Positions 9,149 to 64,000 of a stretch of 64,000 nt of DNA are shown here, one piece after another. How positions within the stretch are numbered: position 1 is the stretch's first letter; every line of letters starts with the position of its first letter. The DNA is taken from positions 768,317 through 832,316 of the forward strand of contig CP064968.1 in assembly GCA_016699245.1 (NCBI GenBank). The letters are read 5' to 3'. The position numbers and the translations under genes were made by a program. The notes below the pieces were generated by a model, which worked only from the letters and a program-made list of their open reading frames with translations, did not search any database and had not been told where the DNA came from. The DNA is from Candidatus Kaiserbacteria bacterium (GTDB lineage: Bacteria > Patescibacteriota > Minisyncoccia > Phycocordibacterales > UBA918).

Positions 9149-9153
9149 TCTCA

Positions 9154-9178: not shown

Positions 9179-9212
9179 AAAGTAAAATCTAAAAGTTTTA
9201 CATCGGGGTGTA

Positions 9213-9364: not shown

Positions 9365-9369
9365 TACAT

Positions 9370-9440
9370 CGGGGTGTAGCATAGTGGTAGTGTACTCGGT
9401 TTGGGACCGAGTGGTCCGGGTTCGATTCCCGGCTCCCCGA
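9370..9440 (+). tRNA. tRNA-Pro (anticodon TGG)
   Basis: C1:G72 acceptor end, which is characteristic of bacterial tRNA-Pro; CTCGG-TTTGGGA-CCGAG anticodon arm with G37; CCGGG-TTCGATT-CCCGG T-arm; one T-T mismatch in the acceptor stem; CCA is not encoded. Confidence 0.65.
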
Positions 9441-9829: not shown

Positions 9830-9845
9830 CAATCACATATTAATC

Positions 9846-10334
9846 GTTCCACGTGGAACTATAATGCTTGTTTCATATGAAACAAGCATTATAGTTATTC
9901 GAAAATTACATTCTCTATGAAATTAATCTTCCCGTACTTTTCACGTGGAACTAGACGTATTGCTACAATATCAATTACGAAATCACCAAAATACTTTCTT
10001 TCATCAAGCCAGATGCTAATTGTGTTTTTTAACTTCTTTTGCTTATATGCATGCACATTCTCCTCAGGGCGCCATGTTTTATGTGAAACTGCTCTTTCTA
10101 GATCACTCATTGTTTCATATGAAACAGTCTTTACTTCAATAAAATGGACCTTGCCACTAGTTTCACGTGCAACAATGTCGATTTCACCGCATTTTTTATT
10201 ATAGTTTCTCTCAACAAGAGTAAGGCCTTTCCGCCTAAGCCAATTTGCAGCAATTTCCTCTCCCATTTCCCCAATTTCGTTGTGTTTAGCCATGTTTCAT
10301 ATGAAACTACATGTAAATTTGTTCCACGTGGAAC
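9846..10334. mobile_element. Cassette carrying yraN, bounded by compound palindromic terminal inverted repeats (GTTCCACGTGGAAC plus GTTTCATATGAAAC)
   Basis: Left end at 9846-9893 and right end at 10294-10334 carry the same two 14-bp palindromes in mirrored order; internal copies or variants occur at 9940, 10112 and 10159. Confidence 0.35.
9895..10293 (-). CDS. yraN: YraN-family (UPF0102) predicted endonuclease
   Basis: Motifs GEEIAANWLRRKG, GEIDIVARE and HFIEVKT, which are typical of YraN/UPF0102. Confidence 0.7.
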   Translation of the reverse strand: MAKHNEIGEMGEEIAANWLRRKGLTLVERNYNKKCGEIDIVARETSGKVHFIEVKTVSYETMSDLERAVSHKTWRPEENVHAYKQKKLKNTISIWLDERKYFGDFVIDIVAIRLVPREKYGKINFIENVIFE

Positions 10335-10931
10335 CATTTTAAGTAAATTGCTTAGAATTTGAGCAGAAACTATATTTAAAGCCGTTTTTTAAAGACATTG
10401 CTCTTTTATGTATTTGTCCTTTATACACATATCCACCTGCTTTTCCCCAGTTTTTGGATTTTTTGATTATTTTTGTCGATATGTCCTTTATATTGAAGAT
10501 AGTGTCTTTTATAATGTATTAGCCTAGTTTATCATCATAACTAAACTTAAGTCTTGCACACTGTGCACTATCTTCTACGATTTGGAAGTTTGTGGCCGGG
10601 GAGAATCGGTGTCCAATTCTAATTCGTTGACTCTGGTTTACTTATGATTTTCTAATTGTATCTTTGGTTCTATAATTTGGGGTCAAGTTTCTAAATTCAC
10701 TTCGTTCATTAAGAACTTCCTCCCCGAACTCGTCTGTTTTTGCATTATGAATAGTTTCGTCTCAAAATCTATTGTGAGTAAGATTTTGAGACAGACTCAG
10801 AAAATATAGTCGCTCCCGCTTCTTATTTTCTGGCCACATGACTCCGTTTCACACACAAGATCAAAAGCAAAGCAGTTTGCTTTCTAACGAAAAAACACCA
10901 TTTATTCAATGGTGTTTTTTCGTTTCTTGTG

Positions 10932-10956
10932 TGTGCGACCAGGGGTAATCGAAAAC
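10932..10956 (-). repeat. Partial duplicate of the 3' end of tRNA-Gly(GCC) (tgtgcgaccaggggtaatcgaaaac), with a terminator hairpin at 10896-10928
   Basis: 23/25 identity to 11078-11102; the same tRNA-end-plus-hairpin unit architecture as downstream of tRNA-Pro. Confidence 0.5.
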
Positions 10957-11079: not shown

Positions 11080-11150
11080 TGCGGCCAGGGGTAATCGAAA
11101 CCCCGACTAGTGCTTGGCAAGCACTCGTTATACCACTTAACCATGGCCGC
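11080..11150 (-). tRNA. tRNA-Gly (anticodon GCC)
   Basis: Clean cloverleaf: GCGGCCA acceptor, GTTA/TAAC D-stem, AGTGC-TTGCCAA-GCACT anticodon arm, GGGGT-TTCGATT-ACCCC T-arm; CCA is not encoded. Confidence 0.85.
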
Positions 11151-11156
11151 ATGTAA

Positions 11157-11819
11157 TCAATACTCTTTTTCAGCGAGTGTTACCCATTTGAGTAGTGTTC
11201 GCTTTAAAATTGTATTCCCGATTATAGTATTTCCTACTCCATCATGCAACGTCTGAATTGTATTTTGTTTTTCTAATACTTGATAGCGATGAAACTGAGT
11301 AATTGGAACACGAATTGAACGTGACCAGATGCGTGAAACTTTTTCTGGGGAGTGGGTAGGGTAGAGAAGGAGCCAAAATCGTATATTTTCCCGTGGAACG
11401 CCGAGATATTCTTGCATAAACGTAATAAAAATACGGTGAGCCGACTTTCGTGATGTGGAGATTCGTATCTGATTACTTAATGAGCAGTCACCAAGGGCTG
11501 CATAGAGCATTATCCCTGCAATAAAGGCAGGGAAGTGCTTGTAATGCTTGAAAGATATTGTTGCACTCCGTTCTGCTTCTGCATATTGTTTCTTGAGTTG
11601 GTTGCTGCGCGCTTTATTCAGTAATCCAATACGTTTGCCATTTTCCTTTGAGGTACGTTTCTTATTGTCATTGGTAACAGAAATTGACCATGTTTCATGT
11701 GAAAGCCAGATACTTACGGTACTTTTTGAGACACCCACAACATGCGCTATCTCGGTATAGGTAAAACCACGCTTACGCAATCTGCATGATTCTTCGTACT
11801 GAGCAGATTTACGTATCAC
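11157..11819 (-). CDS. HTH-domain protein with a LAGLIDADG-like motif (paralog 2 of 3); ends 6 bp upstream of tRNA-Gly(GCC)
   Basis: HTH (LRKRGFTYTEIAHVVGVSKSTVSIWL); motif FIAGIMLYAALGD; homologous to the ORFs at 3806..4546 and 12316..12993. Confidence 0.6.
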   Translation of the reverse strand: MIRKSAQYEESCRLRKRGFTYTEIAHVVGVSKSTVSIWLSHETWSISVTNDNKKRTSKENGKRIGLLNKARSNQLKKQYAEAERSATISFKHYKHFPAFIAGIMLYAALGDCSLSNQIRISTSRKSAHRIFITFMQEYLGVPRENIRFWLLLYPTHSPEKVSRIWSRSIRVPITQFHRYQVLEKQNTIQTLHDGVGNTIIGNTILKRTLLKWVTLAEKEY

Positions 11820-12180
11820 AGTATGAGTATAATATATACTTCGTCAATTGTTCGATTTGAGGTGTGTAGAAGCTGGGTTTTAGGTATACAGGTACTTAGT
11901 TGGACTCGTCCCGCTTTTTGACCAATTTTTCTTGAGACTGAACGGATTTAGAAAAATGTAAGGTGAATTGCGAAGCAAGAGAAGATACCCTGGGGTAGAA
12001 ATACTCTTGTGGTGCTAACTCACTACATTTTGTGGTCACGAGTTGCTAAGTGTAATCAAACACTTCGTGTTGATTACACTAAGCACTCTCGACCCCAGCT
12101 CGTGGTTTTTCTTCTTTGTGGAAGAAAAACATCACTCCGCCTTGCACAAAAGCCGAACGCAAAGCCTTTTGCGTTCTAAA

Positions 12181-12315: not shown

Positions 12316-12993
12316 CTATTCTTTGAGATAAGAATCAACCAACATTTTCTGCCAAAACTTCATTTTGAGTAGTAGTTCTTTACTCCTCCTGACCTCGATG
12401 CGAATACACCCCTTATATAGCGGGCGCTTTTTAATTCCGCGACCACCTGGCTTATAGATAGTTTTTTTGAACTGGTCTTTATGTATATTAAGTTTATTTT
12501 TCCACCACTCTTCACAATTTTCGTGTGCGTACAATTTATGTATGAAAAGACGAAAATGCAAATCAGAGTGTTTAATTTCAATAAATCTTTCTAACCACAA
12601 AATCATTACTTGAATCATGTCATCGTCTGAGTTTATAAAACTCCATTGATTGACACGTTTTGCTCCCTCAGCCCAATATAGAGAAATGCCACAATGAAAA
12701 AATGTATCGTGTTTGTATTGTTGAAACACTTTTTGTGCTTCTTCAAGAAAAACTTGTTCACGAGCAAGACGTCTTTTTCTTAATTCGCTTGCTGCGTTAA
12801 TTCGTCCCCGCGTTATGTTTGAATCTTTGCGATGTTTAAGCACCTTCCTTTCATCCTCAGTAAGTGGTAAGTCTTTGAGCCAAAGCGACAATGAACTCTT
12901 TGCAACATTAACTTCTTTTAAAATTTCATTATATGAGCAACCTTTTCTGCGAAGTTGTATAGCTCGATCTTTCTCTTGAACTAATGTTTTCAT
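12316..12993 (-). CDS. HTH-domain protein with a LAGLIDADG-like motif (paralog 3 of 3); ends 16 bp upstream of tRNA-Arg
   Basis: HTH (LRRKGCSYNEILKEVNVAKSSLSLWL); motif FFHCGISLYWAEGAKR; homologous to the ORFs at 3806..4546 and 11157..11819. Confidence 0.6.
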   Translation of the reverse strand: MKTLVQEKDRAIQLRRKGCSYNEILKEVNVAKSSLSLWLKDLPLTEDERKVLKHRKDSNITRGRINAASELRKRRLAREQVFLEEAQKVFQQYKHDTFFHCGISLYWAEGAKRVNQWSFINSDDDMIQVMILWLERFIEIKHSDLHFRLFIHKLYAHENCEEWWKNKLNIHKDQFKKTIYKPGGRGIKKRPLYKGCIRIEVRRSKELLLKMKFWQKMLVDSYLKE

Positions 12994-13074
12994 GTTTATA
13001 ACATTATATCATGGTTTGAATAACACACGGCGCAGTTGTGTACATTTCTATGTAAAACCAATACAATAGACACC

Positions 13075-14547
13075 ATGATAGTCCGCAGTGAAATACCAAA
13101 GGGAGTACAGCATGTGGCCGATATTCTCGAAAGCCATGGTTTTGAGGCGTATTTGGTGGGGGGATGCGTTCGCGATTTACTTATCGGAAAGCAACCAAAG
13201 GATTGGGATATCACCACTGATGCACATCCTAATGAAATAGAGAGTTTTTTCCCAAACACATACATCAACAATGATTTTGGTACCGTAGGAGTGGTAAACG
13301 AGGAGACTGAGGATCCGACGCTTAAAATAGTGGAGGTAACGCCATATCGTACCGAGTCTGAATATTCTGACGCACGCAGGCCAGACTCAGTAGAATTTGG
13401 GGTTTCTCTGACCGAGGACCTTAAACGACGCGATTTTACCGTAAATGCTATCGCATATCGCCTCAAAGATGAATCAATCGTTGACCTTTTTGGTGGGGAA
13501 GAGGATATCAAGCACAAGCGACTCCGTGCAGTAGGGAACCCTACCGAGCGCTTCAAAGAGGATGCACTGCGTATGATGCGTGCGGTGCGCCTTGCGGTGG
13601 AACTTGGTTTTGTGATTGAAAGTGAAACCATGTCTGCTATTACTGAAAATAGTACCAATTTAAGTCGTATTTCAAAGGAACGTATTCGCGATGAATTTTC
13701 ACGTATTCTTGAGTCAAAACAGCCAATGCAAGGGATTATTTTCCTCGAGAAATTGCAATTGCTTCAGTTTGTAGCCCCCGATCTTCTCAGGGGGATTGGG
13801 GTAGAACAAAATCAAGCACATGCTTTTGATGTATACGAGCACCTTTTGCGCACCATGCAACACGCTGCCGACAAGGATTGGGAGTTTGATATTCGCCTTG
13901 CAGGGCTCTTTCACGACATCTCCAAGCCAGAGACACGACGCTGGTCGGATGAGAAAAAGGATTGGACCTTCCATGGACATGAGGTAGTGGGTGCTAGAGT
14001 AGCGAAAAAGGCTTTGCAAGACCTTAAGTTTCCTCGTGAACGTATCGAAAGGATCGTCACACTCATCAGGTGGCATATGTTTTTCTCAGATCCAGCACAA
14101 ATCACTCTTTCTGCAGTACGCCGCACTATTGCGAATGTAGGGCAGGAGAATATATGGGACCTCCTCAAACTCCGCAGATGTGACCGAATTGGCACGGGAA
14201 GGCCAAAAGAACAGCCTTTCAGGCTCCGGAAGTACACTGCCATGGTGGAAGAAGCACTTCGTGACCCTATTTCAGTGAAGATGCTCAAGATTGATGGTTC
14301 CCGCATTATGGAACTTACGGGGGAGAAGCCGAGCAAGAAACTTGGTGACACACTAAATGCACTTCTTGAAGAAGTCCTCGACGAACCAGCAAAGAATACG
14401 ACTGAATACATGGAAAAACGTGCCCTTGAACTCATGCACATGACGGAAGCAGAGCTCGATGCCCTCGGAAAGAGTGGAAAGGAAAAGCGGGAACGAGAAG
14501 AAGCCGAAGCTGTTGCAGAATTACACAAAAAGCATAAGGTGGACTAG
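13075..14547 (+). CDS. cca: CCA-adding tRNA nucleotidyltransferase with an HD domain
   Basis: Pol-beta NTase motif LVGGCVRDLL..DWD; HD motif LFHDISKPE; the start is probably the internal Met at 13075 rather than 13036. Confidence 0.75.
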   Translation: MIVRSEIPKGVQHVADILESHGFEAYLVGGCVRDLLIGKQPKDWDITTDAHPNEIESFFPNTYINNDFGTVGVVNEETEDPTLKIVEVTPYRTESEYSDARRPDSVEFGVSLTEDLKRRDFTVNAIAYRLKDESIVDLFGGEEDIKHKRLRAVGNPTERFKEDALRMMRAVRLAVELGFVIESETMSAITENSTNLSRISKERIRDEFSRILESKQPMQGIIFLEKLQLLQFVAPDLLRGIGVEQNQAHAFDVYEHLLRTMQHAADKDWEFDIRLAGLFHDISKPETRRWSDEKKDWTFHGHEVVGARVAKKALQDLKFPRERIERIVTLIRWHMFFSDPAQITLSAVRRTIANVGQENIWDLLKLRRCDRIGTGRPKEQPFRLRKYTAMVEEALRDPISVKMLKIDGSRIMELTGEKPSKKLGDTLNALLEEVLDEPAKNTTEYMEKRALELMHMTEAELDALGKSGKEKREREEAEAVAELHKKHKVD

Positions 14548-15734: not shown

Positions 15735-16308
15735 AGTATATACTTTGGATGTATAGTGTCAACTTGAGGTGTGGCCTTGCCAGACCTTCTCGCAAAATAC
15801 AATAAAAAAAGCCCGTGGGATTGATAGCCGAGATGAATCTCTGCGCCCAATCCGACGGGCTTTGTTTGGTAGGGTGGTCTGTTCTCGTCTGAGTCAAAGT
15901 GGAACATAAGGTTCCAGTGGATGTACCAGATGGTACTGTATCCTAAGTGTGACTCCTTAAATTAGTTTTGGTGAATCTTGTCTGAATCATGTAAATTCAG
16001 TGCTTTCATCACCGAGTGTGATGTACTAAGAGTTTTTTTGGAGGTATTAACTCAATTTTATAATGTGCTCTTTAAGGGGTATCTCTCCGATGAGAGTTAC
16101 CTGCTCGCCCTTTCTGGGCCTATCACTATAGTATGTCCTTTATAATTGAGTGTAAAGGACATACCTGTGTATAAGTGTGGATAACAAAATAATCATGTCC
16201 TTTATAAAAGACAAAATTTATAATTGTAATTCCAATTATATTTTGAGCCGTATAATTCACATGCCTTTACAGTGAATTGACACATTTATATTTCGTGTGA
16301 TTGTATTT

Positions 16309-17109
16309 CTATAAATCCACTGCTATTTCTAGCGAAACAGGGCAGTGATCGCTCCCTAAAACTTCCGGATGTATGTGTGCCTTTTGTATCATCGGCACGA
16401 GTTCTTTTGACGCCATGACGTAGTCAATTCTCCAACCCACATTTCGCTCTCGTGCTGCGCCCCAGTGTGACCACCATGTGTAAAATCCATTTCCTTGTGT
16501 AAACAGTCGGAACGAATCTTGGAAGCCCGAACTCATCATTGCATCAAAGCCTGCTCGCTCTTCGAGAGTGAAACCTTTGTTACCTTCGTTTTCTTTTGGT
16601 CGCGCGAGGTCATCTGCAGTATGTGCAACATTGAAATCTCCACAAAAAATGACTGGTTTAATTTTTGCGAGGCTATTCATGTACTCAAGATATGCTGGGT
16701 CCCAATTCTTTTCACGCATCGGAATACGGGTGAGATCATCTTTTGCATTCGGTGTATACACGGTACTGACGTAAAATGGCTCAAATTCTAATGTTATTAC
16801 GCGACCTTCTTTGGTAGTGTCTCCATATGAGTCACTGAGTGCATATTTTTGTGCTATTTCGTCTGGAATACCGTAGACAGTATTAAGTGGTTCATACTTT
16901 GTGAAAATAGCAGTGCCCGAGTACCCCTTTTTCTCTGCTGAACACCAATACTCTTCGTAATTCGGCAAATCGATTTCCACTTGGTCTTTCTGTGCTTTTG
17001 TCTCCTGAATGCAGAGGATATCCGGGTCGTACTTACTCAAAAACCTTTCAAAGTCGCCCTTTTTTAACACTGCGCGTATGCCGTTTACGTTCCATGAGAA
17101 AATTTTCAT
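16309..17109 (-). CDS. xth: Exodeoxyribonuclease III (AP endonuclease)
   Basis: MKIFSWNVNGIRA..DILCIQETK and other ExoIII/APE1 family motifs. Confidence 0.85.
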   Translation of the reverse strand: MKIFSWNVNGIRAVLKKGDFERFLSKYDPDILCIQETKAQKDQVEIDLPNYEEYWCSAEKKGYSGTAIFTKYEPLNTVYGIPDEIAQKYALSDSYGDTTKEGRVITLEFEPFYVSTVYTPNAKDDLTRIPMREKNWDPAYLEYMNSLAKIKPVIFCGDFNVAHTADDLARPKENEGNKGFTLEERAGFDAMMSSGFQDSFRLFTQGNGFYTWWSHWGAARERNVGWRIDYVMASKELVPMIQKAHIHPEVLGSDHCPVSLEIAVDL

Positions 17110-54313: not shown

Positions 54314-54515
54314 ATATAAAATGTTGTGGCTCACACTCTACACCACAAACCATTTTTAATCAATACGCATGTAATATGACAAAGGGACTCATCTTTGACA
54401 AATAGGTTATACACGACTCTCCCCATCCTATACACAGCCCCTATACACAATGAGTACTATATATCCCATTTATTGAATATTGTTTACACTTTTCTACAGA
54501 CACGTATAATACTTC
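54314..54515. promoter_or_regulatory. rpmH-dnaA divergent intergenic region with DnaA-box-like repeats (cctatacaca x2)
   Basis: TATACACA variants of the DnaA box; AT-rich. Confidence 0.4.
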
Positions 54516-55925
54516 TTGTCGTTTAGCATTTCCTCTATGCAATCTATGAGTTCCATTTCAAACATCTCAACAAATATAATACACACTGAGCAGATAGATA
54601 TAAAAAAGCTCTGGGATGATGCGCTCGTAAGTATAGAACTCTCCATTACTTCAGCAAATTTTAAAACGTGGTTTCGCGATACACAGATTGTATCGGTAGA
54701 GGATGGCACCGTGACACTGGGGGTGCCGAGTGTCTTTGTGCGCGATTGGGTTGCAGACAAATTTCAAACACTTATTTTAAAGACGCTTCGCGACCTTACC
54801 CCCCACGCGCGAAGTATCGAATACGCTGTAGTCCAACGCACCGACCGTAAACAAGAGTCGTCGCGTAAACAGACGGTAAACGCTGCCCTTCCACTTGAAG
54901 AGTATTACATAAACAAAAGCGACAACCTCAATCCAAAGTATGTTTTTGATAACTTTGTCGTAGGTCCCTTTAATGAACTTGCGCATGCAGCAGCACGTAC
55001 TGTGGTTAATAAGCCTGGCATCGCATACAATCCACTTTTTATATACGGAAAGACAGGGCATGGAAAGACGCACCTCATACAGGCTGTGGGGAACCAATTA
55101 AAACGTGTGGGGAAGAAAGTGTTTTATGTAACCAGTGAGCGTTTTACTGTCGATTATATGAATGCTCTCCAAAATGGTACTGCAAACGGATTTAAGGATA
55201 AATACCGCCAATACGATGTGCTTGTGATGGATGATGTACAATTTTTGATGAATAAAGAAAAGACACAGGAGGAACTCTTCCATCTTTTTAACTCTATGCA
55301 CGACAACAACAAACAAATTGTGTTTTCGAGTGATGTACACCCCGCAATCATGTCGAATATGGAAGATCGTCTCAGGTCGCGTTTTGCACAGGGAATGATT
55401 GTTGATATACCTGAACCTGATTTTGAATCTCGTGGTGCTATTTTACGCTCTAAAGCAGCACAAAATAGCCTTACCTTGAGTGATGATGTGGTGGAACACC
55501 TCTCACATACTATTGATGGCAATGTGCGTGAAATTGAAGGTGCACTCAATACTATTTTGTGTCAATCACAACTCTTAGGGCGCACGTTAAATCTTGACGA
55601 AGTAAAGGTGCTTATTAAAAACAGCACACGTCCGCGCAAATCACTTGCGGTCTCTGATGTAGTGGATAAAGTTGCACGGTATTTTGATATTGACCCCGCA
55701 AGTATCTACGAAAAAACACGTCGTAAAGAAGTGGTGAAGCCGCGGCAACTTATTATGTATATCCTAAGGGAGGATTTTCAAGTATCATATCCTGCAATTG
55801 GACAAAAACTGGGTGGTAGGGATCACACGACTGTGATTCACTCCTGTGAAAAAATTAAGCATGAGGTGAAGGAAAGTGCTGAACTCGAAGAGGAGATTTC
55901 ACAAATCCGTCTCCTTTTGAAATAA
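54516..55925 (+). CDS. dnaA: Chromosomal replication initiator DnaA
   Basis: AAA+ Walker A motif GKTGHGKTHL; C-terminal DnaA DNA-binding domain. Confidence 0.9.
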   Translation: MSFSISSMQSMSSISNISTNIIHTEQIDIKKLWDDALVSIELSITSANFKTWFRDTQIVSVEDGTVTLGVPSVFVRDWVADKFQTLILKTLRDLTPHARSIEYAVVQRTDRKQESSRKQTVNAALPLEEYYINKSDNLNPKYVFDNFVVGPFNELAHAAARTVVNKPGIAYNPLFIYGKTGHGKTHLIQAVGNQLKRVGKKVFYVTSERFTVDYMNALQNGTANGFKDKYRQYDVLVMDDVQFLMNKEKTQEELFHLFNSMHDNNKQIVFSSDVHPAIMSNMEDRLRSRFAQGMIVDIPEPDFESRGAILRSKAAQNSLTLSDDVVEHLSHTIDGNVREIEGALNTILCQSQLLGRTLNLDEVKVLIKNSTRPRKSLAVSDVVDKVARYFDIDPASIYEKTRRKEVVKPRQLIMYILREDFQVSYPAIGQKLGGRDHTTVIHSCEKIKHEVKESAELEEEISQIRLLLK

Positions 55926-56215
55926 GGTGGGGGATATGTGTGGAAAAGTTCTTTATAAAAGTATGGACTACTATTACAAACACCTGTGTATAGAAAGAAT
56001 TAATAGTGGTGTAGGAGACGATTAAGAGGAGTATGGATGTTATGTATAAAATACATCCACACCCTTTTATACAGTTTCATACACACTATACCCAATTCTA
56101 TACAAAGCCAGATATACAAAAAGATTTATAATAAGCCACATTAAAGCAATATCCACACATCCACACCACTAATAATAAGGAATACTGTTTTTAAAAGAAA
56201 AAATAATAGACACGT
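55926..56215. promoter_or_regulatory. Candidate oriC in the dnaA-dnaN intergenic region: multiple DnaA boxes plus an AT-rich unwinding region
   Basis: ATCCACAC-type boxes at ~56051-56064 and 56149-56168 (aatatccacacatccacacc); further TTATACA/TGTGTAT variants; the AT-rich run ttttaaaagaaaaaataata precedes dnaN. Confidence 0.55.
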
Positions 56216-57307
56216 ATGCACATCACTATTGAAACAAAACAATTGAAACAAGTACTCGATATTGTTTCTAAAGTGAGTACAAAACACATCACTCTCCCTG
56301 TACTACAATGTGTGCTCCTTAATGTGTCAGGAACTACACTTGTTATAAAAGCAACAAACCTTGAGATTGGCATTGAGGGAACGCTTACGGTAAAAGTAGA
56401 AGAGGAGGGTGTTATTGCAGTGCCTGCATATATTTTAGTACAGACAGTGAATCTTATTTCACAACCATCTATTACCTTAACTACCGAAGGTGAAGTATTG
56501 GTAGTAGAGGCACGAGACTCACGTACAGAAATTAAAAGTATTCCTGCTGGTGATTTCCCAAGTATTCCTCATATCTCAAGTAACCCTATCACTATACAAG
56601 GGCATCTTTTTGCGCTCGGAATTAAAACAACTGCATTTACTGCGTCACAATCTTCAATTAAGCCAGAGTTGGGGAGTATCTATATTCATCAAAAAAAAGA
56701 GCATGCACTCACGTTTGTAGCGACTGACTCATTTCGTTTAATGGAAAAAACAATTCCACAAAAAGGAGTTGTACTTGAAGAAGCAATTCTTATACCGTAT
56801 AAAAACGCCCTTGAACTCTCACGAGTAATAGATGATGTATCAGGAGATGTGCAACTCTTTGTTACTGAAAATCAATGCGCTCTCACCGTTGGAAATATTT
56901 ATATTACCTCACGTTTAATTACGGGTACATTTCCCGATTACGCTCAGATTATTCCAAAAGAATATAAAACAACTATTACTACCCTCACCAGTGATTTTGC
57001 ACAAGCGCTTAAAAAAACCAATATATTCCTTAATAAATTCATGCAACTTACGCTCACTATCTCTGAGGGTACGTGCAGTCTTTCTTCACAAAGTGGTGAG
57101 GCAGGAGCTACTACTGAGTCAATAAAAGCACATATTGAAGGAGAGGATCTTACACTTAATTTTAATCAACGCTACATTCATGAAGTAATTCCCCATATTC
57201 AAAGTGATAGTATCCTTTTAAAATGTGCCGGTGTAGGCCGTCCTATGGTGATAGAGAACATTAATGATAGTTCTTTACGCTACCTCGTAATGCCTATGAA
57301 TAAATGA
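56216..57307 (+). CDS. dnaN: DNA polymerase III beta sliding clamp
   Basis: 363 aa with a three-domain beta-clamp pattern; located immediately after dnaA. Confidence 0.85.
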   Translation: MHITIETKQLKQVLDIVSKVSTKHITLPVLQCVLLNVSGTTLVIKATNLEIGIEGTLTVKVEEEGVIAVPAYILVQTVNLISQPSITLTTEGEVLVVEARDSRTEIKSIPAGDFPSIPHISSNPITIQGHLFALGIKTTAFTASQSSIKPELGSIYIHQKKEHALTFVATDSFRLMEKTIPQKGVVLEEAILIPYKNALELSRVIDDVSGDVQLFVTENQCALTVGNIYITSRLITGTFPDYAQIIPKEYKTTITTLTSDFAQALKKTNIFLNKFMQLTLTISEGTCSLSSQSGEAGATTESIKAHIEGEDLTLNFNQRYIHEVIPHIQSDSILLKCAGVGRPMVIENINDSSLRYLVMPMNK

Positions 57308-57321
57308 CCGAAAAATAATAT

Positions 57322-57600
57322 GCGAAGCATATATATTTTCTCGAGTCCTTCGATTTTTCCTCCCCCCGGAGGAAAAATCGAAGCAGCAAGACCCTGTAGC
57401 GAATCCCTTTACCAAATCCCTGTTTTCCTCCCCCCGGAGGAAAAATCGAAGCAGCAAGACCCTGTAGCGAATCAATTTATCAACTCCTATAATTTCTGAG
57501 TGGTCTAGAAATTAAGAAGCGAAGCGCCTATAATTTTCCGAGTCCTTGGCTTTTTCCTCCCCCCCGGAGGAAAAAGCCAAGTAGCCATCAATGTAGCGAG
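57322..57600 (+). repeat. Three copies of a ~60-85 bp hairpin-containing repeat (stem cgatttttcctcc-cccc-ggaggaaaaatcg plus tail agcagcaagaccctgtagcgaatc); the stem of copy 3 carries compensatory changes
   Basis: Copies at 57322-57405, 57413-57473 and 57518-57600; in copy 3, cgat becomes ggct and atcg becomes agcc, which preserves base pairing. Confidence 0.6.
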
Positions 57601-57660
57601 TTTATATAACTGACCCTGTACCAAGTCCATATAACCACCCCCCACCAAATCTATTTTTAC

Positions 57661-57966
57661 ATGCTCTTCAAACCCCACAACAAACGCGGACAAGGAATCG
57701 TACATGTCTCCGACCTTTTTAAAAAATATACCCAAACCCTTAGGGCACCACAGGGGATAGTGGTAACCGCATTTATTGTGGCAGTAGAAGAGGTGTGTGG
57801 TGCAACACTCACAAAAAATAATTGTACGTATAATCCTGATACACACACTCTCTCAGTACATGCATCAGGAATGATAAAAACAGAAATAACTCTTCATAAA
57901 AAGGAAATATTACGTGTAATGCGCGACACTATTAGTGAAAAGAGTCTCCCCAAAAACATTCTTTAA
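57661..57966 (+). CDS. DUF721/DciA-like small protein
   Basis: 101 aa; C-terminal pattern L.V...S..IKTEI.L.K..IL resembles DUF721; located next to dnaN. Confidence 0.35.
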   Translation: MLFKPHNKRGQGIVHVSDLFKKYTQTLRAPQGIVVTAFIVAVEEVCGATLTKNNCTYNPDTHTLSVHASGMIKTEITLHKKEILRVMRDTISEKSLPKNIL

Positions 57967-60257
57967 GGATTATTTGATTCTTCGGGCTCTTCTACTTCAT
58001 CTGAAGTAGAAGTATCAGTTTCCTCTGCTTCTTTAATTTCATTAAGTCCCATAAGAGAATTTTTCCAGAGTGTGATGGGGTATTCCCACAGAGGGAATTG
58101 ACCGTCAGTAGGGTATGAGGGTTGCGGACCGCGTGGATTGTCTTTATCAAGGAAGTACAGAATCGAATGTGCACCCATAACTGCGTTTTCTACCGTAACA
58201 GGAGCTGGCCCAGTGTCTCCCTCAGAATCACTCGGAGGAGGGGTTACAAGTGCTCCTGCGTCAAACCAGACCCCTCGGAGGACAGGTTTTAGGGTATCGG
58301 GAGTAGGGATGGGCTTTGTAAATGATTCTTCTTCTAGTGTGGGAAGTGCAACATCCATAAATTCTCGCCAAAGTGGGGTAATAATAAGTCCAGATATTTC
58401 ACTCATAGAGCGATTGTCGTTGTTTCCTGCCCATGCACCAACAACAAGATTAGGAGTGTATCCAAGTACCCATGCATCACGTTTGTCATTTGTTGTCCCT
58501 GTCTTTGCAGCTACATCGCGTCCGCCGAAATAGAGCGTAGAGTTGGCCCCATAGAGCGGTGTACGAGCAACGTTGTCGGAAAGGATATCAGATATTTGTC
58601 GTGCAACATTAGGGTCAAGCACTGGTTTTGCTACAGGTTCTGACTCCTCAAGTATATTTCCATCAGCATCTTCAACACGAATAATACTTTGGAGCTCATG
58701 GCGAATTCCTTCATTTGCAAAAGTACCATACGCACCTACCATTTCTAGAAGTTTTACCTCACCACCCCCAAGTACAAGCGTGAGTCCATACTTATTTCCA
58801 CTTCCGAGAGTGGTGATACCCATATCTCGCGCCATTTTAATCGATGCAGGAATACCAGCGAGGTACAGCGCTTTTACTGCGGGGACGTTGAGTGATTGAG
58901 CAAGCGCATTTTTAAAAGTAACCGGGCCACGGAATTTATGGTCGTAGTTGTCGGGGGAGTAACAACCATCCTCAGAGGTAAAATTGTCAGGCGTGCACGT
59001 GGTGGAAAACTGTGTTTTAAGATCAAAGACTACCGTCTCAGGAGTGTATCCCTTTTTAAATGCGGCTGCGTACACAAATGGTTTAAAGGAAGATCCAGGC
59101 TGGCGTTCGGCGAGGGCAATATTGAAATTACCATCGATCTCAGTGTCGAAGTAATCACGCGAGCCCACCATAACGAGTATGTGGCCATCAGTAGGGTCTG
59201 TAGCAACAAGCGCCGCATTTTCTGCATTAAAGGTTTTGGCATTGTGTAATGCGTTCTTTTTTACAATTTCCTCTGCTTGTTCTTGTAGTTTCCAATCAAG
59301 AGTAGTGATTACCTTAAGTCCACGCTCAGCAATTGATTCTTCACCGTATTTTTCAACAAGGTAGTCTCGTACATAGAAGACAAAGTGTGGTGCGCGAATA
59401 CCAGTAGCTACTTGTGGTTTAAACTCTACTCGCTCATTCATGGCAGCATCGTGCTCCTCTTTAGAAATAAAGCCGAGCGTGACCATTTTCTCGAGAACGT
59501 AGTTTTTACGTATCTCGAGTTCATCAATGTGATTACCGTAAGGAGAATAATATGTAGGAAGTTGAGGAAGTGCTGCAAGATATGCTGCCTCTCCGAGCGT
59601 CACTTCAGAGGCACGTTTTCCAAAGAATGAGAGACTTGCTTCCTCGACACCGTATATCGTTCCTCCGTATGGTGATTCATTGAGATAGTGACCAAGGATT
59701 TCTTCTTTGGTGAGTATTTGTTCTAGACGAAATGCAAGAATAGCCTCCTTCACTTTTCTGGTGAGTGTTTTTTCGTGTTGGAGAATGGAATTTTTGATTA
59801 CTTGCTGTGTGATAGTGGAGCCTCCTGCACCACTAAAGGGGCCACCACCCTTTTGTACATTGCTTATCATGGAGCGTAGAATTGCAAGGGGGCGCACACC
59901 TGCATGCTCAAAGAAGGTATCATCCTCAATAGCAACGGTGGCATTTTTGATGTGACGAGAAATGTCCTCATACGGCACAATGGTGCGGCGTACGTCTTGG
60001 TGGAGGTCGTAGAGGAGAATTTCCCCAGTACGGTCGTAGATTTTAGTTGATTGTTGTACTTTGCGCTCTTCAAAAGAAGAAAGGTCGGGAATATCGAGGG
60101 TGGCAATCCATACAAGAAGGATACCGGTAGCAATGAGTCCCAGCACAAAAAGACCAATAAAACCATCAATAATAATCTCCTTGAAATGCCGTTTAATCCA
60201 CGTGCGCACATGTTTCATATTGCCAATAGTATCACTGTATTGTGCAGATATAAACAT
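57963..60257 (-). CDS. Class A penicillin-binding protein (bifunctional transglycosylase/transpeptidase)
   Basis: GT51 motifs (EDDTFFEHAGV, GGSTITQQ) and transpeptidase SxxK (GSSFKPF), SxN and KTGT motifs. Confidence 0.85.
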   Translation of the reverse strand: MFISAQYSDTIGNMKHVRTWIKRHFKEIIIDGFIGLFVLGLIATGILLVWIATLDIPDLSSFEERKVQQSTKIYDRTGEILLYDLHQDVRRTIVPYEDISRHIKNATVAIEDDTFFEHAGVRPLAILRSMISNVQKGGGPFSGAGGSTITQQVIKNSILQHEKTLTRKVKEAILAFRLEQILTKEEILGHYLNESPYGGTIYGVEEASLSFFGKRASEVTLGEAAYLAALPQLPTYYSPYGNHIDELEIRKNYVLEKMVTLGFISKEEHDAAMNERVEFKPQVATGIRAPHFVFYVRDYLVEKYGEESIAERGLKVITTLDWKLQEQAEEIVKKNALHNAKTFNAENAALVATDPTDGHILVMVGSRDYFDTEIDGNFNIALAERQPGSSFKPFVYAAAFKKGYTPETVVFDLKTQFSTTCTPDNFTSEDGCYSPDNYDHKFRGPVTFKNALAQSLNVPAVKALYLAGIPASIKMARDMGITTLGSGNKYGLTLVLGGGEVKLLEMVGAYGTFANEGIRHELQSIIRVEDADGNILEESEPVAKPVLDPNVARQISDILSDNVARTPLYGANSTLYFGGRDVAAKTGTTNDKRDAWVLGYTPNLVVGAWAGNNDNRSMSEISGLIITPLWREFMDVALPTLEEESFTKPIPTPDTLKPVLRGVWFDAGALVTPPPSDSEGDTGPAPVTVENAVMGAHSILYFLDKDNPRGPQPSYPTDGQFPLWEYPITLWKNSLMGLNEIKEAEETDTSTSDEVEEPEESNNP

Positions 60258-60290
60258 CTGGAGGGTGTGATACTATAATGAGTACTTACT

Positions 60291-61472
60291 ATGCAAATAG
60301 ATACAAATCCAGAAAAAATTGAAACATTACTCACCCGTGGCGTTGAAGAGGTAATTCACTATGATGAACTCAAATCAAAACTTCTTTCAGGCAAACAATT
60401 GCGAGTGAAACTCGGCATCGACCCCACAAGTGCTCATGTGCATATTGGTCGATCAGTACCCCTTTTAAAACTCCGTGACTTTCAGGAACTTGGGCACCAA
60501 ATAATACTCATTATTGGTGACTTCACGGGAATTATTGGTGATACTTCAGATAAGGAGAGTGAACGTCCCATGCTCACACGTGAAGCAGTAGATGAAAATA
60601 AAAAAACATATCTAAAGCAAGTGGAAAAAATTCTTGATATTAACAAAGTAGAATTTCGCTACAACTCAGAATGGCTCGAAAAATTAACATATCGCGAACT
60701 TGGAGAACATGCAGACCTCTTCTCAGTGGCAGATTTTATTGCACGCGATAACATCAAACGTCGCCTCGATACAGGGAAGCGTGTATCACTTCGTGAGACG
60801 CTGTACCCACTTATGCAGGGGTATGACAGCGTAGCGATTCAGGCTGATGTAGAGCTCGGTGGTACTGATCAACGATTTAATCTTCTAGCGGGACGCACCA
60901 TGCAACCCCACTTTGGACAGGATGCACAAAATATTCTCATGTCTCCTTTGATACATGGTACTGATGGGAGAAAGATGAGCTCGAGCTGGGGAAATACTAT
61001 CAATCTCCTTACTCCCTCGAATGATATGTTTGGAAAAGTGATGAGTATGCGGGATGAGGATGTTGTGGCTTATTTTGAGATGTGCACACGACTCCCTATG
61101 CATGAGATACAGACGATTGAAGTAGAACTTGCCGCAGGGGCAAACCCACGCGATATGAAACTTCGTCTTGCATATGAAATTACCCGCATGTATCACGGCG
61201 ATGAAGGAGCAAAAGAAGGACAGACATATTTTAGTGAGACCTTTCAGCAAAAGCAGGTCCCCGAGGATGTGCTTGAAATTAAAAAGGATTTCGTGGAGGA
61301 ACTTATTGCACAAGCAGTGGTATCTTCAAAGGCTGAGTTACGACGTTTGCTTGAAGCGGGTGGTGTACGAAATGCAGAGACGGGCGAGAAAATCACAGAG
61401 ATCCCTGAAACCGTTTCGAAACCAACAGTGTTGAAACTTGGAAAGAGAAGGTTTGTGAAATTACTTCCATAA
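60291..61472 (+). CDS. tyrS: Tyrosyl-tRNA synthetase
   Basis: HIGH motif (HVHIG), KMSKS motif (KMSSS) and a C-terminal S4-like domain. Confidence 0.8.
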   Translation: MQIDTNPEKIETLLTRGVEEVIHYDELKSKLLSGKQLRVKLGIDPTSAHVHIGRSVPLLKLRDFQELGHQIILIIGDFTGIIGDTSDKESERPMLTREAVDENKKTYLKQVEKILDINKVEFRYNSEWLEKLTYRELGEHADLFSVADFIARDNIKRRLDTGKRVSLRETLYPLMQGYDSVAIQADVELGGTDQRFNLLAGRTMQPHFGQDAQNILMSPLIHGTDGRKMSSSWGNTINLLTPSNDMFGKVMSMRDEDVVAYFEMCTRLPMHEIQTIEVELAAGANPRDMKLRLAYEITRMYHGDEGAKEGQTYFSETFQQKQVPEDVLEIKKDFVEELIAQAVVSSKAELRRLLEAGGVRNAETGEKITEIPETVSKPTVLKLGKRRFVKLLP

Positions 61473-61474
61473 TA

Positions 61475-61507
61475 AAAACAGCCCGTGCGAAGCACGGGCT
61501 GTTTTTA
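61475..61507 (+). terminator. Rho-independent terminator after tyrS
   Basis: aaaaacagcccgtgc-gaa-gcacgggctgttttt. Confidence 0.7.
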
Positions 61508-61511
61508 TATT

Positions 61512-61781
61512 TTAAAGTTCATCTTTATCATCGAATGAATCATAATCCATTTCTTCCTCGTCTTCTTCCTCGTCGAATACCTTACTTCCATCTTCTGCAA
61601 GGCCGGGTTCCGTTTCTTCAGTGAGTGCATCAAATGCAGTTTCCTTGAGTAGTGGGTCAAATTCTTCATCAAGCTCGTCATCTACTTCCTCAGTAAGTTC
61701 ACCGAGGAGGGCGTCGTCAATACCCACCTCTTCCTCCTCTTCAAAAATATTTGAATTGTTTTGTGTTACAAAAAAGATCAT
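61512..61781 (-). CDS. Small, very acidic (Asp/Glu-rich) protein
   Basis: 89 aa, more than 40% D+E; low complexity. Confidence 0.3.
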   Translation of the reverse strand: MIFFVTQNNSNIFEEEEEVGIDDALLGELTEEVDDELDEEFDPLLKETAFDALTEETEPGLAEDGSKVFDEEEDEEEMDYDSFDDKDEL

Positions 61782-61879
61782 ATGGTTCGTGTATTTGGTT
61801 ACAATAATCTAGTAGAGTTCTTTGTATCAAAAGTTTACGTATTATGCAACTGGGCAATCCCTATAATTATAGGTTGAGA

Positions 61880-62353
61880 TTAATGAGGGTGGTGGGCAAG
61901 CGTGGTAATTCCGACTGCAATTGCATCATATTCATCATCAAGCGCATTCATTGGGGCATTTACAATGAGGCGTTTCACCATATCAATGACGGCTTTTTTG
62001 TCACTTTTCCCGTAACCAGTTACCGCTACTTTTATTTCTTGAGGGCCAAATTCATACACCACACACCCAGCTTTCTGTGCGAGAAAGAGAATAATCCCTC
62101 GTGCCTGCGCAACCCCAATCGCCGTTTTTACATTTTTGTTAAAAAAGAGTGTCTCTATACCAACTGCTTGTGGTGTATGTTCAAGAATAAGTCTTTCAAC
62201 TGCTTCTCCAACTTGAAAAAGGCGCGTGTGAAGTGTTTCATCACGAGAGGTCAGGATACAAGCAGAATACAGGAGTTTCTCTTTTCCATTTTCTTTTTCA
62301 ATCACCGCAACACCGAGCCTGTCGTATCCAGGGTCAAGTGCAAGAACACGCAT
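61880..62353 (-). CDS. ruvC: Holliday junction resolvase RuvC
   Basis: MRVLALDPGYDRLGVAV.. RNase H-fold motifs. Confidence 0.85.
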   Translation of the reverse strand: MRVLALDPGYDRLGVAVIEKENGKEKLLYSACILTSRDETLHTRLFQVGEAVERLILEHTPQAVGIETLFFNKNVKTAIGVAQARGIILFLAQKAGCVVYEFGPQEIKVAVTGYGKSDKKAVIDMVKRLIVNAPMNALDDEYDAIAVGITTLAHHPH

Positions 62354-62355
62354 AC

Positions 62356-62904
62356 CTATTCTTTAGAATTAGGTTCGTCTGCAGTGGTGTACACATCGTG
62401 GACATCATCATTTGCTTCAAGGAGTTCCACAAGCGTGGCGAGCTTCTCACCATCTTCTTCAGAAAGATTCATGGGCATGTTGGGGACGTATCCTTCATGT
62501 GTTTTTGTAAATGCCCATGCTGAAGACCCTACTGCACCGAGTTGATATCCATGCTTTGAGAGGAGGTGTTTCATCTCAGGAGTAGTGCGATTGGGGTTGT
62601 CGGTTACCGCGGTTATCAGAATTGCAGTACCTCCGGGGCCATACGTTTCGTAAAGTACTTCAGAAAGAGTAGCACCGTCAGCACCACTTCCTTTCGCGAC
62701 CGCCCTGTCGATGTTTTCTTTTGGCATCGAATCTTTTTTTGCACGCTCAATAGCCGCTGCAAGCCCAGGGGAACTGAGGTTCCCTTGGGCCTTCCTTGAT
62801 TCCATTGCAATAAGGCTTGTGTGTTTTGAAAATACCTTACTTTTTTGCCCATCAGTCTTTGCTTTCTGATGTTTAATCTGTGACCATTTATTATGTCCTG
62901 ACAC
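62356..62904 (-). CDS. yebC: YebC/PmpR-family transcriptional regulator
   Basis: SGHNKWSQIKHQKAKTDGQKSK N-terminus; a GTG start at 62904 is likely, and the in-frame ATG at 62952 is the alternative. Confidence 0.8.
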   Translation of the reverse strand: MSGHNKWSQIKHQKAKTDGQKSKVFSKHTSLIAMESRKAQGNLSSPGLAAAIERAKKDSMPKENIDRAVAKGSGADGATLSEVLYETYGPGGTAILITAVTDNPNRTTPEMKHLLSKHGYQLGAVGSSAWAFTKTHEGYVPNMPMNLSEEDGEKLATLVELLEANDDVHDVYTTADEPNSKE

Positions 62905-62966
62905 GGTATGTAATCTTAATGAATAATGATACGAATATATAACCATCCTCACCGTATTTCATCAAC

Positions 62967-63971
62967 TCATGTGTTCTCGAGTGAACGCATGTGTTCGTAG
63001 GCACTCGTGGTTGCTACGCGACCACGAGGAGTGCGTTCGAGAAATCCTTGTCGAATGAGATATGGCTCAAGGACATCTTCAATTGTCGACATCTCTTCGC
63101 CAGTGGCTGCGGCGATGGTGTTGAGCCCTACAGGACCGCCGTTAAACTTATCAATAACCACACTGAGTACCGCGCGGTCGGGACCGGTGAGACCACGTGC
63201 ATCTATTTCGAGAAGATCAAAAGTCTTTTCAATAATATGTTCATCGAGATCAGTGCTTTCGAGTTGTGCAAGGTCGCGACAACGTTTCAAAAGATAATTT
63301 GCAGTTCGGGGTGTGGCACGACAACGATGTGCAATGTGTTCAAGAAGTGAAGGAGCGACGCGCACACTCAGAAGTTCTGCAGACCTCCCCAGAATATGTG
63401 CTATTTCACTATCAGCATAAAACTCGAGTCGGAAAGTTCCCCCTGAGAAGCGAGAACGAAGGGGAGCAGAGAGAAGTGATATACGTGTGGTAGCAGCAAC
63501 GAGTGTAAATGGAGGAAGGTCGAGCTGTACTGTTCTTGCTGAAGGGCCTTTACCAATAATGATATCGAGGACACCTGACTCCATTGCAGGGTACAGGACT
63601 TCTTCAATAGATTTTGAAAGACGATGTATTTCATCGATAAATAGTACGTCTCCGGGAGTGAGATTGGTAAGGATAGCTGCCAAGTCACCCACACGCTCAA
63701 TCGCTGGCCCCGAGGTGGTTTTCATGTTGGTGCCAAGGGTCTTCGAGATGAGGTGGGCAAGGGTTGTTTTGCCAAGCCCCGGAGGTCCATAGAGAAGAAT
63801 ATGTTCAGCAGCATGGCCACGCTCACGCGCTGCGGTAAGCAAAATACGTAGATTTTCCTTGATTTTTGCCTGTCCGACGTACTCATCCCACGATTGAGGT
63901 CGAAGGGTTTGGTCGAGGTTGCCCGTGAAATCGCGCTCAATAGAAGGCTTTGAATCAATGGGTGTATTCAT
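62967..63971 (-). CDS. ruvB: Holliday junction branch-migration helicase RuvB
   Basis: Walker A motif [13 protein letters not shown] and a RuvB C-terminal domain. Confidence 0.9.
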
Positions 63972-64000
63972 GGGTATATTGTATATGAAGAGGGGAGAGA

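Follow-up and report, generated by a model that had tools for sequence, protein, structure and literature searches.

Classical repetitive extragenic palindromic (REP) sequences occur in hundreds of copies, typically more than 100 per genome and chromosome-wide, and in Escherichia coli those located within about 15 nt of a stop codon lower expression of the upstream gene. BOX of Streptococcus pneumoniae, together with ERIC, RUP and Correia/NEMIS, are modular intergenic repeats with tens to hundreds of copies per genome, several of which have terminal inverted repeats and target-site duplications. Here, we describe a family of intergenic hairpins from a 64-kb stretch of DNA (the window, meaning the whole stretch analyzed) of a genome that its DnaN homologues, 96-60% identical and found in Paceibacterota metagenome-assembled genomes, place in Candidatus Paceibacterota, a lineage of the candidate phyla radiation (CPR). 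The module consists of a hairpin named U followed by a hairpin named X, and it forms an array in the spacer between dnaN and a small open reading frame (ORF), orf101. Comparisons were made with about 30 related Paceibacterota loci (labelled L001 and so on). With moderate confidence, we read the dnaN-orf101 array as a local array of a clade-specific, low-copy family of 3'-flank stem-loops similar to REPs and bacterial interspersed mosaic elements (BIMEs). Among the three candidates offered in a preliminary description of this DNA, a REP-like element is the best fit.

The module resembles the REPs and BIMEs of the GTAG- and CGTC-tagged superfamilies in being composed of short extragenic palindromes in mosaic clusters with other motifs, in lying a few nt from the 3' end of the upstream ORF and sometimes giving its stop codon, in being found mostly between co-directional or convergent genes, in its variability between strains, and in being thought to be transcribed (Di Nocera et al. 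2013, PMC3733652). REPs lie within 20 bp of upstream ORFs, can supply the stop codon, and have been proposed to be transcribed and to act in termination or mRNA stabilisation (PMC3733652). In agreement with the size and placement of REP palindromes (20-40 nt, extragenic), X forms hairpins of 34-40 nt outside ORFs; the 3'-end placement was seen in 5/5 contexts, with U on the stop codon of dnaN and of an acidic-protein gene in L026. A REP is further characterised by an unpaired GTAG or CGTC tag (or TGTC/CCTC), a stem of 8-9 bp, a loop of 4-5 nt and a CCA-like tail (PMC3733652). The 5' ends of X read CGTC (L006, L009, L171 and L138), TGTC (L002, the window copy at 10.8 kb, type B), CCTC (L001) or CCTT (window), which are variants listed for the CGTC tag (PMC3733652), and GTAG follows some copies. 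The CGTC-like bases of X are paired, its stems have 12-18 bp, and its tails read GCAGC, GTAGC or GCAAC. Unlike REPs, the module is low-copy, has nearly perfect stems of 12-18 bp instead of 8-9 bp (PMC3733652), has neither an unpaired tag nor a CCA tail, and always pairs X with another hairpin of conserved sequence, U, in a fixed dyad; moreover, no REP-associated tyrosine transposase (RAYT) was seen in the examined loci, and the host is a CPR bacterium, outside the phyla surveyed in PMC3733652. Because of the low copy number, the missing unpaired tag, the longer stems and the lack of a visible RAYT, we file the U-X family under "structured intergenic palindromic repeats" and not as REP proper.

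With BOX-type elements, the module shares variable numbers of sub-units, stable predicted stem-loops and an intergenic site able to alter flanking transcripts, whereas no sequence similarity to them was found (no Rfam match) and the junctions show neither terminal inverted repeats nor target-site duplications. In the literature on intergenic palindromes of CPR bacteria, nothing specific was found.

Hairpins and tails of the dnaN-orf101 spacer

Read from dnaN onwards, the spacer is composed of U1, X1, T1, a duplicated part (X', T1'), half a U, U3, X3, T2 and T3, followed by orf101. The core motif of X, TTTTCCTCC-N4/5-GGAGGAAAA, has three matches (57355, 57423 and 57553) at the three sites of the preliminary description, with none elsewhere in the 64 kb; it appeared 0 times in 100 dinucleotide shuffles, and a blastn-short search of the spacer against the window returned no additional copy. 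Covariance models for U (R1) and X (R2) were built and run with filters off on the window. Copy 1 (57348..57383, plus strand) and copy 3 (57545..57581, plus) both have perfect 16-bp stems of type A, namely CTTCGATTTTTCCTCC/GGAGGAAAAATCGAAG with the loop CCCC and CTTGGCTTTTTCCTCC/GGAGGAAAAAGCCAAG with the loop CCCCC, and score 65.9 and 56.7 bits with R2. Their predicted RNA folds reach -24.6 kcal/mol (z -7.9) and -27.4 kcal/mol (z -7.5), and their DNA folds -17.2 and -18.2 kcal/mol, respectively. Of the three hairpins originally described, the remaining one, copy 2 (57423-57451), is incomplete: its left arm is cut (ccctgTTTTCCTCC), leaving a 9-bp stem at 57423-57444 with a right arm that runs to 57451, a fold of -12 kcal/mol and a partial R2 match of 24.8 bits.

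Copies 1 and 2 are the product of a recent tandem duplication (57355-57422 to 57423-57490; period 68, 2.0 copies), matching at 93% in Tandem Repeats Finder and at 94% as direct repeat D2. The second unit (57423..57490, plus), which contains the truncated X copy 2 and tail T1' (57463-57487), is missing from L001. The conserved tail ascribed to all three repeats is indeed identical in copies 1 and 2, but only about two-thirds conserved in copy 3. Moreover, the repeat had been drawn too small, as each full copy has a hairpin U before it and 25-nt TGTAGCGA... units after it.

U is a module of ~42 nt with an A/T-rich 9-bp lower stem, a one-base bulge, a short apical stem and a GAA/GNRA-type loop. 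Class-1 U starts on the dnaN stop codon and reads TGACCGAAAAATAAT-ATGC-GAA-GCAT-ATATATTTTCTCGAGTC. Its copy in the spacer, U1 (57306..57347, plus; GACCGAAAAATAATATGC-GAA-GCATATATATTTTCTCGAGTC), scores 47.1 bits with R1 and folds at -11.8 kcal/mol (z -4.05); the dnaN TGA (57305-57307) is the opening part of this hairpin, and orthologues are present in L001, L005, L006, L009 and L171. In class-2 U, an A is bulged above the lower stem (Y)AGAAAWTA/TAWTTTCT, after which come two pairs, two positions that are not Watson-Crick (first G or A facing A, next A facing G) and two more pairs, and the apex AGRAGCG-NRA-GCGAC (GCGAAGC-type) is conserved. The class-2 unit U3 (57503..57544, plus; TCTAGAAATTAAGAAGCGAAGCGCCTATAATTTTCCGAGTC) scores 49.9 bits with R1, has a weak or decayed stem, and by eye is closest to the U at 10793-10835, more so than to U1. 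Just before it lies an isolated U right half (57486..57503, plus; CCTATAATTTCTGAGTGG), which carries the D6 repeat CCTATAATTT and of which 57482-57501 weakly matches the U right half in nhmmer.

X begins 0-2 nt after the GAGTC(C) that closes U, and is a module of 34-40 nt with a near-perfect stem of 12-18 bp and the form GTCT/CTTC...TTTT-loop-AAAA...AGAC/GAAG. Type A (...TTTT(T)CYTC(C)-C-rich loop-GARGAAAA...) is the hairpin first noticed, while type B reads TGTCATAATTTTG-tattcataat-CAAAATTATGAC. The 25-nt tails follow the pattern TGTAGCGA-N-TATAWA-N-GACCC and look like decayed right halves of U, a comparison made by eye. Thus, T1 (57395..57420, plus; TGTAGCGAATCCCTTTACCAAATCCC; direct-repeat families D1, D4 and D5) was likened to U right halves such as GTAGCGACTATATTTTTCGAGTGG in L002, and its 3' part repeats the sequence immediately upstream of the orf101 start. 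T2 (57592-57616) and T3 (57617-57641), which together span 57592..57641 on the plus strand, are TGTAGCGA/TGTACCAA units of the D1 and D4 families, orthologous to two units ahead of orf101 in L001.

U1 has a terminator-like look: it includes an A-tract, its short G+C apical stem carries a GAA triloop, and its 3' arm is rich in T; it follows the terminator pattern in part, as a 6-bp apical stem is succeeded by ATATTTTCT. The same layout (A-tract, short G+C stem, GAA/AAA triloop, T-rich 3' side) recurs in U1-type copies and in clear terminators of the window, e.g., ATAAAAACAGCCCGTGC-gaa-GCACGGGCTGTTTTTAT at 61472-61508. In contrast to intrinsic terminators, X carries its T-run within the 5' arm and its A-run within the 3' arm and lacks a 3' T-tract on both strands; U has weak apical stems; and a separate canonical terminator follows the module in L014.

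Complementarity, placement and turnover of the modules

The compensatory stem change reported in the preliminary description is borne out. Copies 1 and 3 differ by four substitutions that make up two compensated pairs (C-G to G-C and A-T to C-G), both switched on both sides; given two left-arm changes, the chance that two right-arm changes hit complementary partners is ~1 in 1080 by our own arithmetic. This pattern generalises to the copies in relatives. In an alignment of 11 X copies from 8 loci, 92% of the cells are paired and 11/16 pairs are changed on both sides, whereas sliding the partner by 1-3 columns lowers the pairing to 48-57%. In an alignment of 12 U copies, 85% of the cells are paired and 10/15 pairs are double-changed. 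Neither result is reached in any of 500 shuffles (0/500 each), counts that are not probabilities, the aligned copies being related by descent. The stems of both hairpins hence covary strongly.

The cleanest covariation test is the orthologous pair formed by the window and L001, which share 85% nt identity straight across U1, X1 and T1. Between them, four pairs of X (copy 1 and its orthologue) and two apex pairs of U1 are altered, all on both sides, and 0 are left unpaired. The apical stem of U1 covaries as ATATGC/GCATAT, ATGGGC/GCCCAT and ACAAGC/GCTTGT, and the whole spacer folds at z = -9.7. Because orthologous and paralogous copies stay paired through many double substitutions, it is, judging from these alignments, the complementarity of the stems and not their sequence that is maintained, i.e., the hairpin-forming potential of U and X is kept as the sequence changes. 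Two outcomes had been named beforehand as speaking against a structural constraint, random divergence of the copies and a recent tandem duplication; the former was not observed, the relatives' copies staying paired, and the latter applies to copies 1 and 2. As for copy 3, U3 is more like the U at 10.8 kb than like U1, so that copy 3 is probably a separately acquired second family member and not a diverged local copy. Its "double substitution" relative to copy 1 may for that reason be a difference between family members, and not a case of in-place evolution.

A check for homologous repeats downstream of dnaN in relatives had been suggested, and R1/R2 matches (dyads or parts of them) were found behind dnaN in L001, L002, L005, L006, L009, L170 and L171, in addition to the window. 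The family has a second locus in the window, a dyad at 10754..10835 on the minus strand, which lies 3' of a tRNA-Gly gene in the same orientation, and consists of U (10793-10835; R1 55.1 bits) and X (10759-10792; stem GTCTCAAAATCT/AGATTTTGAGAC; R2 57.6 bits), with folds of -15.9 and -15.8 kcal/mol. A partial X-like hairpin (GTTTTTCTTC-cacaaa-GAAGAAAAAC; 12105..12130, minus; R2 22.3 bits, E 6e-4) is found 3' of tRNA-Arg, also in the orientation of the gene. In L026, U starts on the TGA stop of a small acidic-protein gene; a type-B X follows the same gene in L014, with the canonical terminator next; and the metagenome contig L138 carries an array behind a dockerin-domain gene. The upstream gene has the element on its sense strand in 5/5 contexts, at or near the 3' end, and the dyad often begins on the stop codon (TGACC...). 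In L014, L026 and L138 the next downstream ORF is on the opposite strand. Since the L014 and L026 elements face opposite to the dnaN-linked copies, even though they lie ~4 kb from dnaN on the same side, we infer that orientation follows the gene and not the replication fork. In addition, X loops hardly contain any G when read on the sense strand (2 G in ~110 loop nt by hand count).

Searches further afield were less productive. BLAST of the spacer against plasmids and phages gave no match, and a scan of viral contigs for the inner motif gave 10 loci, all without the outer stem and unrelated. A scan of metagenomes returned at least 120 loci, essentially all of them chance matches to a pattern too short to serve for counting, L138 being the sole true family member among the matches listed.

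As to the tRNA-Gly locus, the dyad is absent at the syntenic site of the closest relative, L173, and L178 has an "unfilled" site, GGAGTCATG-TTTTTGC-TATTCATAATGC. There, GGAGTCATG-TTTTTGC-TATTCATAATGCAAAAACAGAC constitutes an older X-like hairpin, the left arm of which is replaced in the window by the 83-nt dyad. We tested this junction for the behaviour of a miniature inverted-repeat transposable element: GGAGTCATG-(83 nt)-TATTCATAAT against GGAGTCATG-TTTTTGC-TATTCATAAT is, in this single junction pair, a replacement with no target-site duplication, and the ends of the dyad are not inverted repeats.

Behind dnaN, the gap to orf101 ranges from 8 to ~500 nt among relatives and is 8-40 nt in most of the distant ones. 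Modules are confined to a subclade with at least ~79% DnaN identity, and are not present throughout it: L008 (94% DnaN identity) has no modules and another spacer, and L017 also has another spacer. The flanks of L005, L006 and L017 are 96-99% identical, yet these loci hold three different spacer alleles; L005-L007 encode an identical DnaN protein. L005 and L006 diverge just after U1, L017, without U1, diverges directly after the dnaN stop, and the three realign at the first codons of orf101. L002 and L009 (96% identical) likewise show spacer turnover within a species, and in both of them part of the array duplicates the ribosome-binding site and start of orf101 (AAGGAAGAAAATCCTATTCAAAATGGATTTT vs AAAAGAAAATCTTATTCAACATGGACTTT), which points to junction duplications. 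With respect to L001, the window has 57412-57590 as extra sequence (tandem duplicate, half-U, U3 and X3), after which 57591-64000 aligns to L001 2691-9099. The comparisons show that arrays grow or change by duplication or insertion, with apparent breakpoints at X left arms.

An alternative, unrelated spacer follows dnaN in L008 (11090-11255), in L017 (4446-4600) and in the 3' part of the L006 spacer. In L008 and L017, a hairpin-containing segment of ~52 nt stands after the dnaN stop, where L006 has the U-X dyad; L006, L017 and, in a diverged form, L008 then have ACCATACACCACGTATGGCTCAC... in common. From its alleles, the site after dnaN appears to behave like a cassette slot.

Alternative readings

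Several observations weigh against a REP/BIME-like family with a role in RNA. The X and U alignments were hand-assembled from hairpin copies picked by eye, with the ascertainment bias that this brings, and one loop C of copy 3 was removed to hold the register of the X alignment. U3 folds at -6.9 kcal/mol (z -0.27), thermodynamically the same as shuffles. The compensation in X hardly ever uses G-U (1 cell in 174) and is otherwise Watson-Crick, a pattern that DNA palindromes show more typically than RNA helices do. X itself does not look like an intrinsic terminator, having no 3' T-tract (3' flanks CAGCAAGACC and TAGCCATCAA) and an empty terminator scan at its position, so a terminator role is plausible only for U1-type copies. 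Copy number is low, with two loci and one fragment in the 64 kb, and R1/R2 found nothing beyond the listed sites in ~0.55 Mb of relatives' flanks, a density estimate and not a census. Moreover, no RAYT or IS200-type transposase (Y1_Tnp) was present among the precomputed Pfam matches of genes in the examined loci, and the RNA-level function, whether as leaky terminator, 3'-end protection or insulator, is one that we infer.

Some of these observations would be expected if the spacer were non-functional, hairpin-prone DNA, in which palindromes are made and kept perfect by template switching, hairpin-templated correction, slippage and hairpin breakage, and the array is a neutral outcome of illegitimate recombination and of duplication in place. 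We regard this as unlikely, but several points speak for it: the junction of the 68-bp tandem duplication is inside an X left arm, the rearrangement at tRNA-Gly again removes an X left arm, spacer alleles vary within species and modules are missing from most relatives. The window itself holds 20 perfect hairpins with stems of at least 12 bp, compared with 0-1 in first-order Markov resamples of the 64 kb, some of them having 29-bp stems derived from an inverted copy of a tRNA-Pro 3' end. Furthermore, the compensated pairs include transversion pairs, which are unable to pass through wobble intermediates. Given Watson-Crick-only compensation, transversion pairs and a palindrome-rich genome, changes that look "compensatory" could stem from templated correction of hairpin arms, with no selection involved. 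The preliminary description had taken the compensation as a sign of selection on structure; the complementarity is indeed kept, but selection is not the sole route to it, as hairpin-templated DNA correction may also keep palindromes perfect. Mutation alone, however, does not predict the sense orientation at gene 3' ends in 5/5 contexts, nor the X loops that are poor in G on one strand only, and the U apex and X loop types (e.g., tattcataat) are conserved between loci and across genomes with proteins only 60-75% identical.

The right half of U also admits another explanation, which we consider quite unlikely: GCGAC-TATAAT, with YAGAAA 17-18 nt upstream, would be a sigma-70-type promoter, and X the 5' stem-loop of its transcript, which would be either a stabilising or regulatory leader for the dciA-like orf101 or a short small RNA (sRNA) ending at the next terminator. 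TAGAAA-17-TATAAT at 57506-57534, within U3, scores 10/12 as a sigma-70-like site, and by our count the 17-18 nt box spacing is found in nine class-2 U copies; orf101 would need its own promoter if U1 terminates dnaN transcripts, and the succession in L014 of half-U, X, 25-nt linker and canonical terminator is the layout of an sRNA gene. Nevertheless, each of the two "boxes" pairs with the other, and their changes covary (AGAAATTA/TAATTTCT, AGAAACAA/TTGTTTCT and CGAAATTA/TAATTTCG), suggesting a hairpin constraint and not sigma-factor contacts. In addition, L014, L026 and L138, with their next ORF on the opposite strand, have no co-oriented gene to drive, promoter-like sites in the region are not above shuffles (4 found vs 7.0 expected), and the site read upstream of tRNA-Arg in this genome is different (TTGATT-17-TATGCT).

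Protein-binding sites near the origin, such as operators or iterons close to oriC with control over replication or over the dnaN and dciA-like genes, were among the candidates first proposed, and are highly improbable: the array adjoins dnaA-dnaN, its inner half-sites TTTTTCCTCC/GGAGGAAAAA form an inverted repeat and 25-nt TGTAGCGA units stand three to four times ahead of orf101 in the window and L001, but no DnaA-box-like motif (TWTMCACA; TTATCCACA-like) occurs in 57300-57660, the outer stems are free to vary but remain complementary, something that a dimeric binder of double-stranded DNA has no need of, the modules are absent in L008 and in most relatives (whose gap is mostly 8-40 nt) and variable within species, and the same dyad stands behind tRNA-Gly and unrelated genes. 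TWTMCACA matches cluster instead on both sides of dnaA, at 54429-54449 and 55939-56157, with DnaA-box-like motifs TATACACA/TATCCACA upstream of dnaA and between dnaA and dnaN. At 16166-16503, ~38 kb from dnaA, further motifs of this kind form a second cluster (minus strand throughout: TATACACA, TATCCACA and two TTTACACA), accompanied by a tandem TGTGGATAAG repeat; this cluster could be a DnaA-titrating or regulatory site.

Other known categories were excluded as well. In agreement with the preliminary description, the array is not a CRISPR array: hairpin spacing is 68 and then 130 nt, the inter-copy sequence is itself repeated (the tails), copy 2 is truncated, and the neighbours of the spacer (dnaA, dnaN, orf101, a penicillin-binding protein gene and that of tyrosyl-tRNA synthetase) include no cas genes. 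At Rfam gathering thresholds the window gave only 4 tRNAs, and a permissive Rfam scan of 57200-57750 peaked at 15.7 and 15.2 bits, where the cutoffs are ~37. U was considered as a group II intron domain V, in view of its 9-bp stem, bulge and GNRA cap, but this drew no support, there being no Intron_gpII match. A reading of CCGTCTGAA...TTCAGACGG, present in some X stems, as similar to the DNA uptake sequence of Neisseria was also discarded, the copy number being far too low for an uptake signal.

Small ORFs at 57320-57499 (plus) and 57505-57846 (minus) were rejected as genes: they have no Pfam match, and the frame of 57320-57499 does not persist in L001. Beyond its TGA, the dnaN frame meets no further stop for 64 codons (57305-57499). 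UGA read-through or a selenocysteine insertion sequence (SECIS) was dismissed, since the window and L001 differ by a 1-nt indel that disrupts the frame, and changes in the stems come in pairs; from the sequence comparison, the open frame is taken as due to chance. The feature is thus not origin-specific, not CRISPR and, because the frame is not conserved, not coding.

Neighbouring features and proposed role

The gene order of the window around the spacer is yidC and rnpA (minus strand), dnaA (54516-55925), dnaN (56216-57307), the spacer, the 101-aa ORF (57661-57966), a class A penicillin-binding protein gene (minus) and the tyrosyl-tRNA synthetase gene. dnaN (56216..57307, plus), coding for the DNA polymerase III beta clamp, matches the N-terminal, central and C-terminal DNA_pol3_beta domains of Pfam with E values of 1e-20 to 1e-24. 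The conserved orf101 (57661..57966, plus) lies 3' of dnaN in the same order throughout and follows dnaN in 25/27 related loci by tblastn synteny. Its earlier designation as dciA-like can be kept only by virtue of matches below the Pfam cutoff (PF05258, DciA; E 0.011-0.062 in 4/9 homologues), none being above it, and its profile matched nothing among PDB sequences. In L168 (JGI contig Ga0558121_00968), the dnaA call at 8333-9711 is split into two overlapping ORFs (204 and 255 aa), through either a frameshift or an assembly error. A conserved set of PrgI, TraC-like and TraG-type P-loop ATPase genes (type IV secretion or conjugation-like) is located a few kb upstream of yidC-rnpA-dnaA in several relatives (L005 154-2978; L168 1-2259; L170 80-2889; L171 239-3041).

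Many of the 20 perfect hairpins of the window are built from an A-tract, a G+C stem, a short loop (often a triloop) and a T-tract, with stems far longer than termination needs. Five perfect or near-perfect palindromes with stems of 18-29 bp are gathered at 9278-9896, after tRNA-Pro. The tRNA-Pro 3' end CTCCCCGACA recurs there at 9433, 9583 and 9773 and, inverted, once at 9635, and one 29-bp stem is an inverted copy of the tRNA end plus terminator, which suggests palindrome-generating rearrangements or stacked integration scars. Similarly, a 3' fragment of tRNA-Gly is repeated ~130-400 nt 3' of the intact gene in the window (10939-10951 and 11085-11097) and in three relatives (L173 8420-8438; L177 8470-8488; L178 15297-15313), with variable sequence in between, a pattern that would be the signature of attL/attR remnants of integrative elements.

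A stretch of ~460 nt upstream of a UPF0102 gene (window 10294-10758, minus; L173 8440-8744; L177 8490-8813) has no ORF of at least 70 aa on the strand of that gene, and one 72-aa ORF overlaps on the other strand. This stretch holds a block conserved in relatives (AAAACTGGGGAAAAG..GGATATGTGTATAAAGGACA), has no Rfam match, and may be an unannotated RNA or regulatory region. Three ORFs of ~220 aa are interleaved with tRNA genes (11157-11819, 12316-12993 and 12996-13658, all minus); an N-terminal helix-turn-helix (HTH_23 or HTH_7) is present in two of them, Pfam matches nothing in the third, and similar genes are found at the same place in L173, L177 and L178.

Coming back to the spacer, on the best reading of the sequence the array grew here through a single tandem duplication and the gain of one further dyad. 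The starting state would have been a resident dyad (U1 and X copy 1) with 25-nt half-U tails, to which a 68-bp tandem duplication would have added the truncated copy 2, and to which a second dyad (U3 and X copy 3) would have been added, new copies arising at the DNA level by hairpin-associated duplication or insertion. The modules may be transcribed as part of the 3' untranslated region (UTR) of the upstream gene. On the basis of the layout shared with the window terminators, a U1-type U would serve for weak or leaky intrinsic termination, and X, as a very stable stem-loop, might protect the 3' end against exonucleases or insulate dnaN from the dciA-like gene. In this the module would work in the manner of REP/BIME or BOX elements.

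A further proposal, speculative and rather improbable in our opinion, is that the U-X dyad is an undescribed non-autonomous element or structured 3'-UTR RNA of CPR bacteria, which would home to the 3' ends of genes and to hairpins like itself, with no RAYT-type transposase that could be recognised. A hairpin on the stop codon would then actively tune translation termination and transcript fate, here the ratio of dnaN to dciA-like expression beside the origin.

Overall, the finding is a modest one: it leaves the picture of replication origins and defence systems unchanged, and in kind the module is like repeats long known elsewhere. Very few non-coding elements have been described for CPR bacteria (Patescibacteria), whose genomes are small and gene-dense, and the present one is a covariation-supported two-hairpin module with no Rfam counterpart, polymorphic within species and overlapping the stop of a core replication gene. 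It may be of use in understanding how transcripts are ended or stabilised in CPR bacteria, as a strain-typing marker and in the annotation of their non-coding DNA, and it provides a test case for asking what maintains perfect palindromes, selection or DNA-templated correction.

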